Source: Candidatus Zixiibacteriota bacterium
GTDB lineage: Bacteria > Zixibacteria > MSB-5A5 > RBG-16-43-9
Reading direction: 5' to 3'
Length of the DNA: 64,000 nt
Assembly: GCA_030692925.1 (NCBI GenBank)
Contig: JAUYBY010000023.1
Coordinates: forward strand, 22,612-86,611
Shown: positions 15,266-59,956 of the stretch, piece by piece
Layout of the letters: the number at the start of each line of letters is the position of its first letter
Numbering within the stretch: position 1 is the first letter of the stretch
The notes under the pieces: model-generated
Databases searched by the model: none
Seen by the model: the letters and a program-made list of their open reading frames with translations, nothing else
Told to the model about the DNA's origin: nothing
Program-made: the position numbers and the translations under genes

Positions 15266-15403
15266 CCTCCACAGGAGAAGAGTTTAAAAGATAAAGATTC
15301 ATTTCTTTTTATCGGCAGATTGGGCATTTTTATAATGATAGAATGAAGAGAAAAAAACTGTAGCGTTGCCTCTTTCAGGGAGAGGGAATAAAAACACAAA
15401 AAA

Positions 15404-15710
15404 TGGTAAGTTGTAGTTGCCCAATTTATTGGGCATGTTTTTAGCTCGATAAATCGAGCAACTACATCTGAGGCAATGTAAAGTGGAACAGACATCTTGT
15501 CTGTTCTTTGAAGTCAGATAGGGATGTCGGCCCATCATTAGGGGAGGGTCGTCCTCACGGGAGTGAGGACGCTATAGCTTTGAAGTCTGCCAGATGGGTT
15601 CGGGAATTCCAATTCCCGAACCAACCTCAAAAATCACAAACGGATGGTAAGTTGTAGTTGCCCAATTTATTGGGCATGTTTTTAGCTCGATAAATCGAGC
15701 AACTACCCGT
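15404..15710. repeat. Composite (BIME-like) REP cluster: two 75-bp direct copies of the TGTAGTTG-CCCAAT../GCTCGATAAATCGAGC-AACTACA doublet flanking three other hairpins
   Basis: Doublets at 15412-15466 and 15653-15706; hairpins GTCGTCCTCACgggaGTGAGGACGC and GTTCGGGAATTccAATTCCCGAAC lie between them. Confidence 0.75.
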
Positions 15711-20334: not shown

Positions 20335-21144
20335 TTAAGTTTTTTTGGTAGAAATCCTCTGGTAGAAATTCCAGAGCTTGAAGTAATTATTAGGTCCTAA
20401 AATAGTCTTGAGAAAACTTAGGAAATTGTCCCTTAGTTTTTTTTTCAGATAGAGCTTTTTATGCTGATTCACTATGGAGACAAAATAAGAGAATGAGTCA
20501 CCAAATCGAAAAGAAATTCTCTTAAGCTCAAGAAGGTTAGTATAAATGTCATTCAAACCAAATCTGGAAGTGCAGATTCCTTTGTAGCCAAGCTCCCTGG
20601 CGATCTCTTTTACCTTTGGACTGTGATATCCACCAGGCAGACTCAAAAGATCGATTTTCTTCACGGTGATTTCCTCCAGCATTTTTTTTGATTCCTGAAG
20701 CTCCAGCTTCAATTCATTCTCATTCAGAGTCGACAGAAATTGATGAGTTTTGCCGTGCGTGCCGAACTCCATTCCTTCCTGGCTCATCCTGAGAATCTGA
20801 GATTTACTCAGATGACCGGGTTTCTCAATAAAATCGCTGGTCAAAAAGAAGATTGCTTTGTAGTCGAATTTGTTAAGCAGGGGAAAAGCTATGGTATAAT
20901 CGGTCTGGTTTCCGTCATCGAAGGAGATTATCAAATTCTTTTCCGGGAGAGAGGATTTATTCTTAGACGATTCCAATAACTGGCTCACTGAAATGGTGCT
21001 CCATCCACTGGAATGAAGATACTCTAATTGTTTTGCGAATTCTTCCTCCTTTAGAAGATAAACCTTATCTTCTGGGCTGTACTTTGACAGGTCATCTTCC
21101 TTAGATAAGATTCCGTGATAAAGAAGGATTAGCATTTTGTTCAA
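20335..21144 (-). CDS. Polysaccharide deacetylase (NodB-homology, PgaB/IcaB-like)
   Basis: FDDGNQTDY, THGKTHQFL and LLYHGI motifs; TTG or ATG start. Confidence 0.85.
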   Translation of the reverse strand: MNKMLILLYHGILSKEDDLSKYSPEDKVYLLKEEEFAKQLEYLHSSGWSTISVSQLLESSKNKSSLPEKNLIISFDDGNQTDYTIAFPLLNKFDYKAIFFLTSDFIEKPGHLSKSQILRMSQEGMEFGTHGKTHQFLSTLNENELKLELQESKKMLEEITVKKIDLLSLPGGYHSPKVKEIARELGYKGICTSRFGLNDIYTNLLELKRISFRFGDSFSYFVSIVNQHKKLYLKKKLRDNFLSFLKTILGPNNYFKLWNFYQRISTKKT

Positions 21145-21169
21145 GACTCTCCTCTTTACTAAAACTTTT

Positions 21170-21232
21170 GTGCGTGCCAGATCCCCTGACCTGGCATGCT
21201 TCCGGTCGGGTCAGGGGACCCGACCACCACAT
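21170..21232. repeat. About 65-bp double-hairpin element C (GCCAGATCCCCTGACCTGG...CGGGTCAGGGGACCCGACCACCACA), copy 1
   Basis: A second copy (about 80% identical) is at 46912-46977. Both copies are flanked by diverged duplications of adjacent gene termini. Confidence 0.7.
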
Positions 21233-21322
21233 CAACCTTATCTTCAGAGTTTATCTTTGAAAGATTCTCTTCCCTGGATAAGAGACGGTGATAAAGAAGA
21301 ATCAAGGTTTTGTTCAAATTTT

Positions 21323-22471
21323 TTACCTCTTGGATGGCTCCCAGATTATTTCTCTTTTTCCTGAGATAAATTTAACCCAGGCAAAAAGCAGGGCAAAGTT
21401 GATCAGATAAAAATAAAATATCGACTCGAAATAAGAAAAAATTCCTGCTGATTTTTTGTTATTCAAAAAAAGCCAGTGAATCAGAGCAATCAGAACAGTC
21501 AAAAGCTCAAATAGAAAAGTGAGTCTGAAAATCAGATGAGTGTGCAGCAGAAAAATACTGGTCAGGAACAAAAGCAAGAGCAAGAAAGGGGTAAGCCATC
21601 TCAACAGTTTATGGCTCAAAAGCTCCAGGCTGAAAATACCATACTTAAAGGGATTCAATAAAGAAAGCTCCGAGAAAAAGACCTCCAAGCCTCCTAAGGT
21701 GGTTCTTCGTCTTCTCCGGAACTCCTCTTTGAAATCAGTGACTTTAGTGACAAAGGCAGTTGCCTCAGGCTCTGAGACCACCCTTTTTCTTTTTTTCACA
21801 ACCTGAAGCGGAAGATAAAAATCGTCTATAAGATCGTTCGGTATCTCGTTTACAAGCTCTCTTCTGATGGCATAAAGGCACCCACTCACCCCGGTCAGGT
21901 TTCCGCTTTGACTTTCCAGCCTTCTTAATTTCATCTCCAGGCCAACATAAAGCCCTTCCCCGGATTCAGACTTTTCTGAAAAAGCAGAGATGCTCCGGTC
22001 TTCTCCGCTTACGCAGCCCACATCCGGATCAGCGAAATTTCTGGCTATGTTTCTCAAAGAGTTTTCGCTCAAAAAGGTAGAGGCATCTGTGAAAAAGACC
22101 AGCTCGGTCTGAACATCTTTCAAAGCCAGATTTAAAGCCCTGGTCTTTCCTCCCCTTTTTCCCGGTCTGATAAGTTTGACTCCCTGGTTCACAAATGATT
22201 GTGCGATCTCTTCAGTTCTGTCTGTGGATGAGTCAGAGATGACTATTATCCTTAATTTTTCCTGAGGATAATTAAGCCTGAGGCAATTCTCCAGCTTACC
22301 TCTGATCACCTTCTCACCATTATATACCGGGATAAGAAGAGTAGCTCCAGGAAGGTATTCTCCCTTTTGAACTGGGTTGGATCTGAGAAAAGATATGATT
22401 TTCAGGAGAAGAAAATATCCCGAATAGGTATAAAACAGCAGAAATAGTAAAATGATGAAAAAAATAATCAT
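21323..22471 (-). CDS. Family-2 glycosyltransferase, membrane-integrated (PgaC/NodC-like)
   Basis: N-terminal TM, GT-A motifs (VISDSSTDRT, FFTDAS), C-terminal TM helices with LRW motif. Confidence 0.8.
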   Translation of the reverse strand: MIIFFIILLFLLFYTYSGYFLLLKIISFLRSNPVQKGEYLPGATLLIPVYNGEKVIRGKLENCLRLNYPQEKLRIIVISDSSTDRTEEIAQSFVNQGVKLIRPGKRGGKTRALNLALKDVQTELVFFTDASTFLSENSLRNIARNFADPDVGCVSGEDRSISAFSEKSESGEGLYVGLEMKLRRLESQSGNLTGVSGCLYAIRRELVNEIPNDLIDDFYLPLQVVKKRKRVVSEPEATAFVTKVTDFKEEFRRRRRTTLGGLEVFFSELSLLNPFKYGIFSLELLSHKLLRWLTPFLLLLLFLTSIFLLHTHLIFRLTFLFELLTVLIALIHWLFLNNKKSAGIFSYFESIFYFYLINFALLFAWVKFISGKREIIWEPSKR

Positions 22472-23334
22472 CTCAGTATCTGAGAATAAAGCTCCTCGTA
22501 GTTTTTTACCATCGATTCCTTGGAGAATTTCTCCATAACCCTTTTCCTGCCCTCCTCTCCCATCTTTTTTCTTAACTTTTCATCTTTTAGAAGCTGTATT
22601 ATAGTCTCTGCCAACTTCTCCGGCTCGGCAGAAGGGACGAGAAAGCCAGTTTTACCTTCCAGAACCAGCTCCGGATTTCCGCCCACCCTGGTGGCAATTA
22701 CCGGCTTGCCAGAAGCCATCGCTTCCAAGATCGAGATAGAACAACCTTCCAGACGGGAGGATAAGATGAAGACATCCATAAGGTTTAAAAGAGAAGGGAT
22801 GTCATCCCGATGTCCTAAGAGCAAGACCTTGTCCTCCAGTTCCAGTTCAGCCCTGAGTTTAAGCAAATTAGTCTTAAGTTCACCCTCTCCGATTATCAAG
22901 AGCTTAGCCTGAGGAAAAAAAGGGGAGACCTTAGAAAAAGATAGAATCAGAGTGTAATGGTCTTTAACTTCTCTCAGGTTACCTACATTTCCCAGTATAA
23001 GATCTTCCTTTAAGAGGTTTAACTCTTTTCTGAGCTTCTCCTGGTCAAACTTTTTTTCGAATTTGCTGGTGTCGATCCCGTTATAAATAAGCTTGATTTT
23101 TTGAGGGAGCAGTTTCAAGTCTTCTTTAAGCAGATTCTGTATATCTTTGGAGACTGCCACGATCTTCTGGACGTGGCTGATCAGAACCTTATAAGAAAGC
23201 CTCCTGGTCCACTTCCCGAAGATATAATAACGGTTGTGAACTGTGGCGAGCATCGGCATAAAGATAGCCTGAGGTGAACCTGTTAGGTAGAGTTCGGGAG
23301 GCATCATAAACCCAGATATCTGCTGCTGGAACAC
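22468..23334 (-). CDS. Family-1 (GT4) glycosyltransferase lacking about 100 aa of the N-terminal domain
   Basis: C-terminal GT-B domain with EGCSISILEAMASGKPVIAT. The N-terminal Rossmann half is incomplete, and the gene overlaps the upstream ORF by 146 nt. Confidence 0.65.
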   Translation of the reverse strand: MFQQQISGFMMPPELYLTGSPQAIFMPMLATVHNRYYIFGKWTRRLSYKVLISHVQKIVAVSKDIQNLLKEDLKLLPQKIKLIYNGIDTSKFEKKFDQEKLRKELNLLKEDLILGNVGNLREVKDHYTLILSFSKVSPFFPQAKLLIIGEGELKTNLLKLRAELELEDKVLLLGHRDDIPSLLNLMDVFILSSRLEGCSISILEAMASGKPVIATRVGGNPELVLEGKTGFLVPSAEPEKLAETIIQLLKDEKLRKKMGEEGRKRVMEKFSKESMVKNYEELYSQILR

Positions 23335-25804: not shown

Positions 25805-26520
25805 GGTGTTTTTCAGTAGTCGCCCAATTCATTGAGCTTTTTTTATGCCTGATAAATCAGGCAACTACATACTCGATAGATCGAGCAACTACAGTTACAT
25901 ATTGTAGTTGCCCAATTCATTGGGCAATATTTTCTTCCAAACAATCCATAGACTATGATTCATAAAACTGACTGAATTTTATCTTCTCTTTCAACGGATT
26001 ATTTATAATATATTCCCTGATTTTAAGCAACGCTTTCTCGTTTCGAATTACATGTTCATAATAATTAGGTTGCCATAATCTTATTCCGGCTTCTTTACTG
26101 GTCAAAGACTTGAATCTTCTTACTATCTCGCCTAAACCGAGTTTAGATTCCTGCAATATAATAATCATATGTATATGTAAAGGTAATATAGAATAATAAT
26201 CAATATTAATGCCCTCGATTCCTTTTAACTCGTCTAAGGCAGTGCGAATTTCCCTGCTGAACTCTTCTAAATAAGGGCGTTGATAACTTGAACAAATGGT
26301 AACAAAATAGTAACCGTTTTGAGAGTAATCATAATGTTTTAATCTTATATTTTTTATCGACCTCATGATTTAACCCTTGCGGTATCCTACTTGTTGTGCT
26401 TTTTGCTCGATGAATCGAGCAACTACAGTCACATATTGTAGTTGCCCAATTCATTGGGCATCTTTTATACCTGATAAATCAGGCAACTACAGGCTCGATG
26501 AATCGAGCAACTACAATTCC
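25805..26520. mobile_element. RAYT (REP-associated tyrosine transposase) locus: IS200/IS605-like Y1 transposase gene flanked on both sides by REP arrays
   Basis: REP units on both flanks share CAACTACA-gtYacatat-TGTAGTTG inverted heads: left flank 25821-25926, right flank 26405-26515. Confidence 0.75.
25953..26366 (-). CDS. tnpA: IS200/IS605-family Y1 (HuH) transposase, RAYT type
   Basis: HuH motif LHIHMII and the C-terminal LWQPNYYEHVIRNE motif (catalytic Tyr); 137 aa. Confidence 0.8.
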   Translation of the reverse strand: MRSIKNIRLKHYDYSQNGYYFVTICSSYQRPYLEEFSREIRTALDELKGIEGINIDYYSILPLHIHMIIILQESKLGLGEIVRRFKSLTSKEAGIRLWQPNYYEHVIRNEKALLKIREYIINNPLKEKIKFSQFYES

Positions 26521-27486
26521 TCAGAGGAGATTCGGAGCGTTCTGGTTCAGATGAATCGAGGCTTTCCTTTTCTGGTCAAAATCCCGATAGGCTCTTATTA
26601 TCTGTTCCTCTGAAAGGTTTAATACCTGACTTACCTTTGAAAGAGGGATTTTGTTCTCCTGAGCATACAAGAGTAAGTCCAACAGGTCATAAGGCATACA
26701 GAAGAAAAACTCCTGATCTGATACTACTGCAGAGAAGGTGTCCGGGCTGGGAACTCGCTTGATTATCTCCTCCGGGATGTCCAGAAATTTAGCTAGCTGG
26801 TATACCTGAGTCTTATAAAGATGAGCAATCGGCTCCAGATCAACTCCTCCATCCCCAAATTTCACGTAAAAACCCTGAGCATATTCACTTAAATTAGTGG
26901 TGCCGATGACCATATAGTTATATTTTTCAGCATAATAATAAAGCTGGATCATCCGGCTTCTCTGTTTCATATCCGTTGCTGCCACAATCCCCAAAAGCCC
27001 TTCTTTGGAAAGGCGAAAACTTTTCTCCTCTCCTTTGGGACTGATCATCTTCAAGCTGAAATAATTAATCCGGTCCCTTTCTAATAAGTCCTGGGGAAGC
27101 CCAATTTTTATTTTATAGGAACTGTCATAAGCGGGGGAAATCTTTTTAATTACCTCGTCTCTCTTTTTATAACATCCCAGACTTTCCATGGCTTGGGTCA
27201 GGTCGACTTTTTCGGTTCTTATGCCCAGTTTCTTAGCTAAAAGCTCTCCATAGGTTAAGCTTATCGGATTCGATTCTTTTTCCGGCAAAAAGACACCTAA
27301 AACCTTATCCTTGCCCAAAGCCCTGACCGATAAAGCAGCAGTTAGAGCTGAGTCTATGCCTCCGCTTATTCCCACCACCGCACCCTCTCTTCTGAAATGC
27401 GTAAAAACCTGTTCTTTTATGAATTCACAAATCCTTTCGCATTCTTTCTCAGAATTTATATCCAGGATATTTTTGTGAAAGTCCAT
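26521..27486 (-). CDS. nadE: NH3-dependent NAD+ synthetase NadE
   Basis: PP-loop GISGGIDSAL, and VIGTTNLSEYAQGFYVKFGDGGVDLEPIAHLYKTQVYQLAKFL matches the NadE core. Confidence 0.75.
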   Translation of the reverse strand: MDFHKNILDINSEKECERICEFIKEQVFTHFRREGAVVGISGGIDSALTAALSVRALGKDKVLGVFLPEKESNPISLTYGELLAKKLGIRTEKVDLTQAMESLGCYKKRDEVIKKISPAYDSSYKIKIGLPQDLLERDRINYFSLKMISPKGEEKSFRLSKEGLLGIVAATDMKQRSRMIQLYYYAEKYNYMVIGTTNLSEYAQGFYVKFGDGGVDLEPIAHLYKTQVYQLAKFLDIPEEIIKRVPSPDTFSAVVSDQEFFFCMPYDLLDLLLYAQENKIPLSKVSQVLNLSEEQIIRAYRDFDQKRKASIHLNQNAPNLL

Positions 27487-30575: not shown

Positions 30576-30666
30576 CCTAAATTTCTCTTGACTTGGCCCT
30601 TAAATTATTACTAAATATAATTCCTGAATGTAGTTGCAACAGGGCGTCCAATTGGACACCCCTACG
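30576..30666 (+). repeat. 91-bp direct repeat, copy 1 (promoter-like TTGACT..TAAATA plus REPIN-like GTAG-palindrome-CTAC)
   Basis: About 92% identical to 31698-31788. The central palindrome GGCGTCCAATTGGACACC is inverted relative to copy 2. Confidence 0.8.
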
Positions 30667-30763
30667 TGGACTGGACAAATCGTCATTCTGTTACCTCCTG
30701 ACACCAACATTAGAAACCTCGTGTATTACCCTCAAACAAGTTTGTGGGTGCCACCTTGCCGCA

Positions 30764-31697: not shown

Positions 31698-31788
31698 CCT
31701 AAATTTCTCTTGACTTAGCCTTTAAATTATTGCTAAATATAATTCCTGAATATAGTTGCGACAGGGTGTCCAATTGGACGCCCCTACG
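31698..31788 (+). repeat. 91-bp direct repeat, copy 2, followed by two more REP units (31815-31868)
   Basis: See copy 1. The downstream units are GTTCGATgaATCGAAC-CCCTACG and TGTAGGGG-CTTGATttATCAAACC. Confidence 0.8.
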
Positions 31789-31886
31789 CGGGTTCTGAAT
31801 CTTAACCGGTCTGGGTTCGATGAATCGAACCCCTACGAATGAATGTAGGGGCTTGATTTATCAAACCCTGCAAAAGCGAAGGGATT

Positions 31887-46502: not shown

Positions 46503-46883
46503 ATGAGCCATGGTTTTAAAAACAAGAAAGTTCTGATCGTAGAAGATAATCCCAATATGTCCAGTCTTCTGGCGGATATCCTGTTGCAATGTTTTGACCT
46601 CAAGAGTGAAAAAGCAAAAGATGGACAGGAGGCTTTAGATATTTTAAAAGACGAGGCCTTTGACCTGGTGATAACTGATTTGATGATGCCTAAGATAGAT
46701 GGGAAAGAACTCTTAAAGACTGTGAAGCAGAATTTCCCTAAACTTCCAGTGGTTCTTATAACCGGCTACGAAGCAGAATTTAATCCGGAAGAGGAACCCA
46801 GACCTGACGGATTTCTGCTGAAGCCTTTCAAAGTGCAGCAGATTGAGGAGCTTCTAAGGAATCTCCAAAATCCTAAAAGATAG
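46503..46883 (+). CDS. Single-domain CheY-like response regulator
   Basis: VLIVEDNPNM...DLMMPKIDG...KLPVVLITGY. Confidence 0.8.
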   Translation: MSHGFKNKKVLIVEDNPNMSSLLADILLQCFDLKSEKAKDGQEALDILKDEAFDLVITDLMMPKIDGKELLKTVKQNFPKLPVVLITGYEAEFNPEEEPRPDGFLLKPFKVQQIEELLRNLQNPKR

Positions 46884-46911
46884 TTTACTTCAAATCCTCT
46901 AAGATTTTCCG

Positions 46912-46977
46912 GTGCTTGCCAGGTCCCTTGACCTGGTTCGCCATTGGCGAATCGGGTCGGGGGACCTGACGACCACA
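46912..46977. repeat. Double-hairpin element C, copy 2
   Basis: GCCAGGTCCCTTGACCTGG...CGGGTCGGGGGACCTGACGACCACA; flanked by two 45-bp copies (84% identical) of the response-regulator 3' end. Confidence 0.7.
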
Positions 46978-47039
46978 TAAAATTGACGAGCTTCTGAAAA
47001 ATCTTCAAAATCCTAAAAGATAGTAGAATAAGAAATGTT

Positions 47040-47320
47040 TGAAAGGTCTATTTCGCAGGGCTGTTCCGCCTGAAGCATTGTATGTGTGAGTTCTTCGTAT
47101 TCCCCTCCCTTGATGGCCGTTAAAAGCTTTACGGCTCGTAGAGGAGGGGTAAGGGGAGGGTGAATTGTCTTTTTTTGTCTTCCCCCTCACCCTCTCCCAC
47201 AAGCCGATAAAAGCATTACGGTGGCTGCGCCCTTCGCTCCTCGTAGAGGGAAGAGGGAAACTATTTTGTGAGTCCGGCACCTGTGCCCGACTTTTCCCTC
47301 TTTAATTCTTGAGAGATGTC
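47040..47320. repeat. Cluster of GC-rich hairpin repeats (two about 60-nt units CCCCTCCC..GCCGtTAAAAGCtTTACGG..CTCGTAGAGG..GGGGAGGG, plus GTCCGGCACCTGTGCCCGAC)
   Basis: ORF 47005..47280 lies entirely within these repeats and is probably spurious. Confidence 0.6.
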
Positions 47321-47321
47321 C

Positions 47322-47780
47322 TTACTTTAAATCCTCCAAAATCTTTAAAAGCTCGCTGTTTTCCCTCTGCTGGGGGATATCATAAACCTGAACGTACCGA
47401 ACAGTCCCTTCTTTATCTATTATGACCGTTGCCCGGTTGGTTATCCCCAGATCGGAAAGATATAAGCCGTACTTGGAGGCAACTGCTCCTTTTGGGTGAA
47501 AATCAGATAAAAGAGGATATTTGATCTGAAGCTTTTCCGCAAAGGCTTTGTGGGACCAGATATTGTCAACGCTGATTCCAAAGACCTGGGCATTCAGATT
47601 CTCAAATCTTTTCAGGTCGTTGACAAAACAGGTATTCTCCTTTGAACAGACCGGGCTGAAATCCGCCACATAAAAGGCTAAGACGATATTTTTACCTTTG
47701 AAATCTGATAACTTGTATTCCTTATCATCATGCCCCTTCAACATAAAATCCGGAGCTTTCTCACCTGGTTTTATGGGCAT
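47322..47780 (-). CDS. Peroxiredoxin (AhpC/TSA family, Bcp/PrxQ-like)
   Basis: [13 protein letters not shown] peroxidatic-Cys motif; 152 aa. Confidence 0.85.
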
Positions 47781-47883: not shown

Positions 47884-48117
47884 TCACATTTTCTCTAATT
47901 GCTCGCTAAATTGCTCAGGAGTCATCTCGATTTCCCGAAGGATTTCACGAATCAATGGTCGGGCAAAGTCCCTTCCTGGATGATTAGGCACCGTGGTAGT
48001 TCTTCCATCAGGGTGACGAAAGAACACATGACTTCCCTTCTGCCGCACGGCCTTAAAGCCTAAGCTGAGTAGCAGCTTTTCCATTGTTTTGAAGTCCGTA
48101 ATCGGGAGGCGGCTCAT
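47884..48117 (-). CDS. hicA: Type II toxin HicA (YcfA-like mRNA interferase)
   Basis: KGSHVFFRHPDGRTTTVPNHPGRD matches the HicA signature; 4-nt overlap with the upstream hicB. Confidence 0.8.
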   Translation of the reverse strand: MSRLPITDFKTMEKLLLSLGFKAVRQKGSHVFFRHPDGRTTTVPNHPGRDFARPLIREILREIEMTPEQFSEQLEKM

Positions 48118-48332
48118 ATAACCACCTCAATCTGCTGAAGACCTATAAAGTGCGGTAAGTCTTCTACTGGGCCTTCATACTCTTCAAGACATAATTCCAA
48201 AACTTCTTTGAGATTTTTCTGGAGTTCGTCCAGAGTCGCACCCTGGGTATGGGCCCCGGGGATGCCGGGAACAATTCCTACGTAAAGTTTAGTCTCAGGA
48301 TCCCATTCTACATAGGCGGTAAAGGTTTTCAT
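48114..48332 (-). CDS. hicB: Antitoxin HicB (UPF0150)
   Basis: 72 aa; YVGIVPGIPGAHTQGATLDEL motif. Confidence 0.75.
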   Translation of the reverse strand: MKTFTAYVEWDPETKLYVGIVPGIPGAHTQGATLDELQKNLKEVLELCLEEYEGPVEDLPHFIGLQQIEVVI

Positions 48333-57382: not shown

Positions 57383-57721
57383 TTTTAATATGTATATATA
57401 CATATTAAAATAGTACATCCATTATACACGATAACATATTAAGCTATTATAGAACAATGAATTAGAATGCTATTATCATAAAATATGGAGCATATTATGT
57501 AGTATATATACTACATAATATGCATAAGATATTTGCGTGTAAAAAAAAATTAAGCAAAAGTTGAAGATTTCTCTTGACAATTTGACTATAATGTATATAT
57601 ACATTATAGTCTTTATCTAATACGGAATCAACTGATCTACTAAGGTGTTAAAACTTAATAACTTAGTCCGGATAACTTAACATAAATGATGGCTTTTATT
57701 ATTGTATATATACAATAATAA
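57383..57721. promoter_or_regulatory. Array of four perfect 26-32-bp palindromes sharing the core GTATATATAC, at 57383-57410, 57491-57522, 57584-57611 and 57696-57721
   Basis: Centres are 110, 91 and 111 bp apart. Palindrome 3 forms the 17-nt spacer of a TTGACT-17-TATAGT promoter (57582-57610), and palindrome 4 lies 20 nt before the AbiEi-like start. Confidence 0.7.
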
Positions 57722-59486: not shown

Positions 59487-59573
59487 AGGTTATCCTTTTG
59501 ATTGCTTTTTCTTCAGACCTGAAAGGAGTATCACGGATTCTACTCGGGAGATTAAAAATAACATTCAAAAAAC

Positions 59574-59956
59574 TGGAGGCGGTGGGAATCGAACCCACGT
59601 CCGAAGATAAGAACTAAAGGACTTCTACAGGCTTAGCTTAGTCTTTTTTCCTTCCCGCTTTTGGCAGGAGGGACTTTCGCTCCAGGAAAGACCGACAAGC
59701 AGGTCTAACCCAGAACTATCCCGGTTTTGTTTCGCCCTCTTCCCCCAGGAGATAGAAGAAGGCTATCCTGTTTTTCTCGACGCCTTAGCCCAAACCAACA
59801 GGCAGGCTCAGGTAAGACGAGCTACCTTTTATTAGGCAGCCAATGCATACGAGTATTCGTTTGCATTTAGATTTGTTCCCAATGGATTAACGAGGTTACT
59901 GGGTACCTCGGCCTGCTTTCCTTTACCCTTGATCCCCGTCGAAACCGATCGCCCCC
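59574..59956 (-). ncRNA. ssrA: tmRNA (ssrA), tag peptide (A)ANEYSYALAA
   Basis: 5' end GGGGGCGAUCGGUUUCGACGGGGAUCAAGGG and 3' end GGACGUGGGUUCGAUUCCCACCGCCUCCA (tRNA-Ala-like T-arm and acceptor). Tag ORF GCAAACGAAUACUCGUAUGCAUUGGCUGCCUAAUAA. CCA is not encoded. Confidence 0.9.

Follow-up and report, generated by a model that had tools for sequence, protein, structure and literature searches.

The 64,000-nt stretch analyzed here over its whole length, further called the window, comes from contig JAUYBY010000023.1 of a Candidatus Zixiibacteriota bacterium (positions 22,612 to 86,611 of the forward strand), and contains a gene for a CheY-like response regulator (RR) that converges on a peroxiredoxin gene. 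Between these two genes lies a long hairpin, termed element C, of which the window holds two copies only, and both copies stand between diverged duplicates of the end of a neighboring gene. Element C is a REPIN, i.e., two inverted repetitive extragenic palindromic (REP) units that pair into one long hairpin. To account for the duplicated gene ends beside it we favor, on balance, a history in which recombination brought in a new gene end along a tract that stops at the REPIN, with the former end staying behind as a fossil.

Results

Layout of the RR-peroxiredoxin junction

The features at both copies of element C are collected in Table 1. The initial annotation of this DNA had described two 45-nt copies of the RR 3' end on either side of the hairpin; both sequences were located, with 7 of 45 positions differing, and their translations, QIEELLRNLQNPKR* and KIDELLKNLQNPKR* (asterisks denote stop codons), are correct, as is the statement that an in-frame TGA at 46967-46969 shuts the downstream frame. 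A repeat search independently found the pair (46842-46884 and 46982-47024, 43 nt, 88% identical). The pair is thus real, but its boundaries had been misplaced: the first codon, CAG in one copy and AAA in the other, lies outside the repeat proper, which begins at ATTGA (46842 and 46982) and differs at 5 of 43 positions, and the AAA of the downstream "codon" belongs to the conserved 3' end of the element (CAC-A-T-A-A-A). Likewise, the 28-nt apparent spacer is not anonymous, as 46885-46904 (TTACTTCAAATCCTCTAAGA) is a non-functional duplicate of the peroxiredoxin gene's 3' end, which matches the live end (47322-; TTACTTTAAATCCTCCAAAA) at 17 of 20 positions with exclusively synonymous differences, both ends reading ..LEDLK* on the minus strand.

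With the element delimited to 46905-46981 by the conserved ends of its family, the duplicated unit comprises 46842-46904 and its second copy starts at 46982. A unit of approximately 63 bp that spans both gene ends is present on either side of the REPIN. The left copy consists of the live RR tail and stop (46842-46883, the final 14 codons), 1 nt, and the dead peroxiredoxin end, while the right copy comprises the dead RR tail and continues onward to the live peroxiredoxin end, of which 47322-47341 complete it. Past the fossil tail, the block leading up to the live end of the peroxiredoxin gene contains pyrimidine- and purine-rich hairpins (ttcccctccc...ggggaggg; cttccccctcaccctctccc...gagggaagaggg) that resemble sequences in the related loci L024, L032, and L049.

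Table 1. Positions of the features associated with the two element C copies of the window.
Feature	Position	Strand	Basis
Copy 1, gene-attached repeat: 5' end of polysaccharide-deacetylase-like gene (20335-21144, -) and ribosome-binding-site region	21058-21157	-	
REPIN (hairpin element C, copy 1), oriented as copy 2	21166-21235	+	
Copy 1, fossil: deacetylase-like 5' end, TTG start kept, MNKTLILLYHRLLSREENLSKINSEDKV	21231-21317	-	
CheY-like RR gene, 126 amino acids	46503-46883	+	Open reading frame; Pfam PF00072 on homologs; syntenic loci
Recombinant tract: RR 3' part and left repeat copy	46817-46904	+	Private synonymous variants in window and L065
Left copy of duplicated unit	46842-46904	+	Matches L064 empty-site arrangement (RR stop, tc, peroxiredoxin stop)
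REPIN (hairpin element C, copy 2)	46905-46981	+	Fold; family alignment; conserved ends
Right copy: dead (fossil) RR tail, IDELLKNLQNPKR*	46982-47024	+	TGA 46967-46969 severs it from any open reading frame
Further hairpin/repeat elements, about 300 bp, fossil tail to live peroxiredoxin end	47025-47321	.	Sequence reading
Peroxiredoxin (AhpC/TSA) gene, convergent with RR gene	47322-47780	-	Open reading frame; Pfam on orthologous loci

Hairpin element C is a REPIN

Copy 2 of element C opens with a T-run (46905-46908) and GTGCT (46912-46916), followed by a 5' REP palindrome (46917-46936), an apical stem-loop (46937-46951), a 3' REP palindrome (46952-46969), CGACCAC (46970-46976), and ATAAA (46977-46981). 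The hairpin has a folding energy of -51.7 kcal/mol (z = -8.0), and 0 of 200 shuffled sequences were as stable. Each arm is a palindrome of its own, i.e., TGCCAGGTC-CCCT-GACCTGGCA for the 5' arm and CCGTCGGGTC-AGGG-GACCCGACGG for the 3' arm, and the flanking tetranucleotide is conserved, with the 5' unit preceded by GTGCY and the 3' unit trailed by GCAC.

Searching species-representative genomes and metagenomes with a pattern drawn from the window's two copies yielded 57 full copies in 12 genome and 40 metagenome stretches, which formed 41 groups after merging of orthologous loci. The genome stretches all belong to Zixibacteria or to metagenome-assembled genomes labelled 'Ignavibacteria'. All copies are intergenic, with several per 8 kb at some loci, and approximately 15 solo 3' units were encountered in addition. 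The doublet hairpin structure is shared by 43 aligned copies, and the ends of the family are conserved (TTTYCWGTGCY...GRNCACATAAA). Palindromic arms together with common solo units constitute the anatomy of a REP doublet, and hence of a REPIN. As such the identity of the element is ordinary; REPINs are known, and the present family, which is widespread in Zixibacteria-type genomes, is a new member.

The solo 3' REP units, often AAGTTTTCCGTCGGGTCAGGGGACCCGACGGNCAC, were seen in L013-L016 (3398-3428) and L063 (965-991), as well as in L024, L027, L029, L004, L009, L043, and L054; those of L013 and L063 have the same boundary and different left contexts. They could be partial REPIN excision products, as described for Pseudomonas fluorescens, or singlet insertions.

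Several other identities were considered and rejected. The conserved T-run lies 5' of the hairpin and the A-run 3' of it on the plus strand, which is the reverse of an intrinsic terminator, and an integron attC site is ruled out by the sequence and by this same placement of the T-run and A-run. A classical miniature inverted-repeat transposable element, mobilized by a DDE transposase with a fixed duplication of 2-10 bp, does not fit flanking repeats of 45-200 bp and variable length. A parent insertion sequence with the arms as terminal repeats is not apparent either, as the arms found apart from each other in L004 have housekeeping genes (def, yajC, tgt, and radA-type) between them and no transposase. 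Clustering of 499 open reading frames for a gene recurring beside the hairpins returned orthologous loci only. At gathering thresholds Rfam detected only the transfer-messenger RNA (tmRNA) in the whole window, leaving the hairpin without a match, and a permissive scan of the region gave weak generic microRNA-hairpin matches only.

RAYT genes flanked by element C units

REPINs are non-autonomous mobile elements that are moved in trans by a REP-associated tyrosine transposase (RAYT), a Y1/HUH transposase related to those of IS200/IS605. RAYT genes were probed by tblastn with a query modelled on Escherichia coli RayT, and matches were then checked with NCBIfam and Pfam. In L030, an open reading frame of 184 amino acids (649-1203) sits between two element C copies; its NCBIfam match is NF047646 'REP-associated tyrosine transposase', with 110 bits against a cut-off of 80, and Pfam Y1_Tnp gives 38 bits. 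Orthologs in L066, L067, and L068 (65-74% identity) have REP units of element C on both sides and a Formyl_trans_N (purN-like) gene as downstream neighbor. RAYT genes flanked by element C units were thereby found on four contigs, with one RAYT per contig. In the features that could be tested, element C agrees with REPIN/RAYT systems, and a RAYT is its putative mobilizer.

The window contains a RAYT-like gene at 25953-26366 (-), which exceeds the Pfam Y1_Tnp cut-off of 23 with 29.7 bits and stays under the NF047646 cut-off of 80 with 71.5 bits. This gene is flanked at 25814-25957 and 26404-26548 by a different REP family (GTAGTTGCCCAATTYATTGGGC / GCTCGATRAATCGAGCAACTAC), of which further copies occur at 2448, 15411, and 15652. 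Two 63-nt doublet copies of this REP family, family A (15403-15465 and 15644-15706), are 100% identical, including 8 nt of upstream flank, and lie 241 bp apart; this pair may reflect a recent tandem REPIN-plus-flank event.

The junction in related strains

Syntenic contigs were reached via homologs of the window's RR protein (n = 283), and their junctions were compared side by side. Empty sites were found in L017-19, where 6 bp separate the RR stop from the peroxiredoxin stop, and in L064, which is hairpin-free with a 2-bp gap and an A-type tail (..RNLQNPKK*). In the ancestral state the RR and peroxiredoxin genes are convergent with stops 2-6 bp apart, leaving no spare room for an insert. The arrangement of the window recurs in L065. 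Strains L013-16 carry a live tail ..KRIPDFQR*, a shortened peroxiredoxin fossil, the 3' REP unit only, a partly deleted A-type fossil tail, and the peroxiredoxin end. The live A-type tail of L062 is joined directly to the start of the window's post-fossil sequence (approximately 100 nt, to the contig end), L063 has a solo REP unit 26 nt further downstream, and in L020 another kind of hairpin element is accompanied by a short target duplication. The fossils are partly deleted both in L013-16 and, at copy 1, in L034, L035, and L042, and are therefore non-functional and under deletion.

The initial annotation had asked whether the downstream copy represents the terminus of a paralog. No protein ending in KIDELLKNLQNPKR was present among the 33 closest of the 283 RR homologs, and the ..RNLQNPKK/R* tail type is the functional end of the orthologous RR in related strains, including the empty-site L064. 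The displaced copy thus belongs to the RR gene itself, as an old or foreign allele, and not to a paralog. At the protein level (alignment of P0001-P0033), the last 12-14 residues of the RR fall into at least three types (..RNLQNPKR, ..KRIPDFQR, and ..KRLPKF) plus chimeras (QIDEVL+RNLQNPKK), and the distribution of these tail types is at odds with the phylogeny of the remaining sequence.

In the window, the peroxiredoxin gene is separated from the rubrerythrin gene by a HicA/HicB-like toxin-antitoxin pair (47884-48332, -). This pair is present in L017-19 and absent from L013-16 and L020, so that close strains are polymorphic for its insertion or deletion; HicAB genes are also located downstream of the CapA-like gene in L008 and L070.

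Copy 1 and the wider REPIN family

At copy 1 the same architecture was confirmed, with 87-nt repeats (21058-21144 and 21231-21317, 76% identical) around a hairpin at approximately 21166-21235 in the same orientation. Its fossil abuts the stop of a glycosyltransferase gene (21323-22471, -). In the 25 nt from the live start codon to the REPIN only the ribosome-binding site AAGAGG is shared with the glycosyltransferase end, to which this segment is otherwise non-homologous. The sister strains L034, L035, and L042 have kept the REPIN at this site and lost 57 nt of the fossil.

Flanking repeats were assessed across the family by local alignment of 300 nt on each side of the element, with pseudo-sites 700-1500 nt away on the same contigs as controls. 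Direct repeats with a score of at least 50 were found at 7 of 39 non-redundant REPIN loci and at none of 186 pseudo-sites, so that the window's flanking repeats are not due to chance; with a score of at least 36 these counts were 10/39 and 3/186. Approximately 75% of REPIN loci lack a flanking repeat and approximately 25% have long ones. All significant cases fall on the diagonal that would result from a left copy abutting the 5' end of the element and a right copy abutting its 3' end, and in each of them at least one aligned copy reaches to within 6 nt of it. Repeat lengths vary from about 63 to 200 nt and identities from approximately 93% to 65%, and in all of the approximately 10 examples the copies differ from each other. 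The genes concerned have housekeeping roles and are not related to one another; the repeats cover, for example, a CapA-like 3' end in L008, a small open reading frame in L031, and the end of a convergent gene in L001 (last residues ..AIKFSFKR*).

Origin of the two gene-end copies

Substitutions between paired copies were counted according to Nei-Gojobori. The copy 1 repeat pair has 9 synonymous and 12 non-synonymous differences, the RR tail pair 4 and 3, and the peroxiredoxin tail pair 4 and 0. Pooling these (17 synonymous, 15 non-synonymous) gives a pN/pS of about 0.22, which is below the value of about 0.55 calculated for one copy drifting freely since a common origin, on 32 differences only. 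The earlier description of a repeated hairpin between two diverged gene-end copies with mostly silent or conservative differences is thereby upheld by the sequence and by these counts.

The RR gene of the window is a mosaic. Its nt 1-300 are approximately 99% identical to L064, L013, and L017; from nt 315 (46817) onward there are 5 private changes (nt 315-336), all synonymous, and then a tail that has diverged by 16-33%. Relative to L013, differences amount to 1/112, 2/112, and 6/112 through the body and to 15/45 in the tail. From this mosaic it follows that a recombination tract starts approximately 25 nt upstream of the repeat and enters it. Compared with L013, L017, and L064, the RR gene is 96-97% identical and the peroxiredoxin gene approximately 89-90%; this identity step across the junction is suggestive and not decisive, as the values for neighboring genes span 88-96%.

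The clearest case of heterologous copies is L008. Of the 225 nt to the left of its REPIN, 222 nt, which extend 21 nt beyond the stop codon, align with L070 at 86% identity; the 183 nt to the right are 81% identical to L069 and reach 24 nt beyond the stop of that gene. The left and right flanks match each other over just 57 nt at 72%. At the protein level the fossil tail of L008 is approximately 67% identical to the live tail of P0243 and approximately 33% to the resident tail, without a frameshift. The two copies at L008 are heterologous, each originating from a different lineage, and because their post-stop flanks differ, target duplication cannot produce this pair.

Other features of the window

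In a 94-nt repeat (30576-30669 and 31698-31791; 91% identical, 1122 bp apart), an AT-rich stretch resembling a promoter (..TTGACTT..) occurs together with a hairpin of a third family (GTAGTTGCRACAGGGYGTCCAATTGGACRCCCCTACG); this family also occupies the RR-peroxiredoxin junction in L020 and L021. The tmRNA gene is located at 59571-59956 (-; Rfam RF00023, 201 bits). Three perfect AT-rich palindromes (57383-57410, 57490-57523, and 57584-57611; e.g., GCATATTATGTAGTATAT/ATATACTACATAATATGC) occur within 230 bp.

Discussion

Element C shares with the REPIN/RAYT systems described by Bertels and Rainey (2011, PMC3116915) and Nunvar (2010, PMC2817692) the two inverted palindromic units that form one hairpin with a conserved stem and a variable loop, the many extragenic copies, the solo units as decay products, the RAYT gene flanked by the same units, and the tandem clusters of REPIN plus flank. 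Previously described systems come mainly from Proteobacteria, with some from cyanobacteria; the host here belongs to the Zixibacteria, and GTGC/GCAC takes the place of GTAG/CTAC as the flanking tetranucleotide. A further difference is that about a quarter of the loci analyzed here carry 45-200-bp diverged direct repeats of neighboring gene ends. In a limited search of the REPIN literature, no description of such frequent long diverged gene-end repeats was found; the architecture of the flanks is informative, and it may be new.

The history that we favor on balance would start with a donor tract from a diverged strain, in which the REPIN came along with the 3' part of the RR gene and the flank of this part. 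To the left, homologous recombination would have taken place inside the RR gene, upstream of approximately 46817. On the right side, the tract would stop exactly at the REPIN 3' end and be joined slightly upstream, out of register, in the homologous sequence of the resident, either by a RAYT, an enzyme that cuts single-stranded DNA beside REP hairpins, or illegitimately, with the end protected by the hairpin. The resulting overlap would keep both neighboring genes whole and strand the old end of the resident as a fossil, which would then decay by mutation and deletion. That such events are seen where genes abut would follow from the fact that an insert at a junction of 2-6 bp survives only with both gene ends present. 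The heterologous copies at L008 and the mosaic RR gene point in this direction, and we infer that copy 2 of the window has this same history, as well as the chemistry by which the joint would be made. The "local duplication" considered in the initial annotation is probably too simple, as the copies seem to stem from different haplotypes; a plain target-site duplication probably does not account for them, or not in every case.

A comparable process is homology-facilitated illegitimate recombination in natural transformation, which de Vries and Wackernagel and also Prudhomme are said to have reported in 2002, and which reportedly combines one homologous anchor with one illegitimate joint that can create duplications or deletions beside the foreign DNA. 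It differs from the present case in that the illegitimate joint is here always at the same element end, which suggests a REPIN-specific or RAYT-specific step. Integrative elements that bring a replacement gene end, such as islands at the 3' ends of tRNA or protein genes, likewise keep the target intact and leave the old end as a diverged direct repeat; these are kilobases in size and use an integrase at a fixed core site, whereas element C involves no integrase, has a variable overlap, and is found at 5' or 3' gene ends on either strand.

Several observations weigh against import of a recombinant tract. The synonymous bias is based on 32 differences only, and the window's repeat copies are of the same tail type and 12% apart, which also fits duplication in place followed by drift and allele replacement. 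The right copy in L013 is contiguous with the peroxiredoxin end, precisely as target-duplication geometry predicts. The youngest-looking flanking repeats, in L027 (93%) and L001 (92%), resemble tandem copies of REPIN plus flank and not imports. Right-hand junctions, judged by inspection without formal scoring, displayed no conserved motif and no convincing microhomology, and a RAYT cognate to element C was not found in the window. Finally, import alone leaves unexplained how a REPIN first came to abut a position inside a gene.

Some of these observations are shared with a serious rival, long target duplication in one step, which we consider possible but rather unlikely. According to this explanation the REPIN entered a break with a wide stagger, or a switch of template during replication produced a second copy of 45-200 bp, so that the copies were identical at birth and their present differences are due to neutral decay of the dead halves and later allele replacement of the live halves. 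The geometry is exactly that of A-X-element-X-Y with A-X-Y as the empty site, and the identities form a continuum from 93% to approximately 65%. Moreover, there is precedent: long target duplications (Nobusato 2000; Furuta 2010, PMC2853133) are characterized by direct repeats that exceed 30 bp, vary in length, correspond to one copy at the empty site, as in L017-19 and L064, often overlap gene 3' ends, and flank inserts without a transposase, by mechanisms that the latter source treats as still unknown. In P. fluorescens, tandem units of REPIN plus flank are known (PMC3116915). The inserts of PMC2853133, however, are kilobase restriction-modification units with near-identical repeats (44/46 and 417/423), whereas here a 77-nt REPIN is flanked by repeats that are 65-93% identical and in at least one case stem from different lineages. 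Near-identical copies with the same flanks, which distinguish long target duplications, were not seen at L008, and those at copy 2 of the window are 88% identical. Besides the non-homologous post-stop flanks at L008, each matching another lineage, a one-step origin conflicts with the lack of relation between the segment left of the REPIN at copy 1 and the glycosyltransferase gene end, with a pN/pS that is low relative to free drift, and with the lack of identical copies among the flanking-repeat examples. Transposition of the IS200/IS605 type, from which RAYTs derive, furthermore generates no target duplication.

It is improbable that RAYT cutting at an alternative site moved the REPIN plus flank as a unit and re-inserted it next door, giving (REP)-X-REPIN-X arrays of which the window copy would be a decayed member. 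Such arrays are apparent in L027, L029, and L001, where a solo REP unit lies just upstream of the left copy (REP-X-REPIN-X), while in L001, L004, and L024 the repeats end with ..AAC|TTT in both copies, overlapping the 5' T-run of the element; tandem clusters of REPIN plus flank have also been reported (PMC3116915). Upstream of the left copy in the window, however, lies intact and conserved RR coding sequence in the empty-site layout without a REP relic, the situation being similar at copy 1 and in L008, and no relic was present upstream of the left copy in the 8 orthologous haplotypes examined. Tandem copying of REPIN plus flank is a third process, apparent in L027, L029, and L001, that cannot explain the window copy.

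A programmed system, with the downstream copy as a silent cassette or template for variation of the C-terminus (as in a diversity-generating retroelement or shufflon) or with the hairpin as a terminator or RNA element, is highly improbable: the hairpin between repeats at a gene 3' end recalls the VR-hairpin-TR layout of diversity-generating retroelements and RR tails are mosaic among strains, but the differences are not limited to adenines (at 3 of 7 the downstream copy has a base other than A), at copy 1 the repeat is of a gene's 5' end and lies on the opposite strand, fossils are undergoing deletion in sister strains, the affected genes are unrelated housekeeping genes, and the hairpin has a T-run before and an A-run after it and no Rfam match above threshold.

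REPINs are regarded as passengers with almost exclusively vertical inheritance, and we know of no direct observation of their insertion and spread. We tentatively extend the recombination-tract reading to the proposal, which we hold conceivable and less than likely, that REPIN ends serve as recombination joints between diverged genomes, with a strand that is cut by a RAYT or protected by the hairpin being joined out of register to a homologous chromosome, and the tips of adjacent genes being swapped between lineages while the old tips stay behind as dated fossils. If true, REPINs would cross lineages together with gene ends, and would act as a general cause of mosaic C- and N-termini where genomes are tightly packed. 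The family offers a natural record for such analyses, because approximately one in four copies has a fossil of the prior state beside it, empty sites as well as intermediate stages of decay are available in related strains, and at one locus or more the two sides stem from different lineages. Comparative genomics can thus address whether the arrival of a REPIN duplicates its target, whether REPINs lie at the ends of recombination tracts, and whether they drive the replacement of gene termini. For annotation, short gene-end fragments resembling open reading frames beside hairpins in compact genomes are to be read as scars and not as genes.

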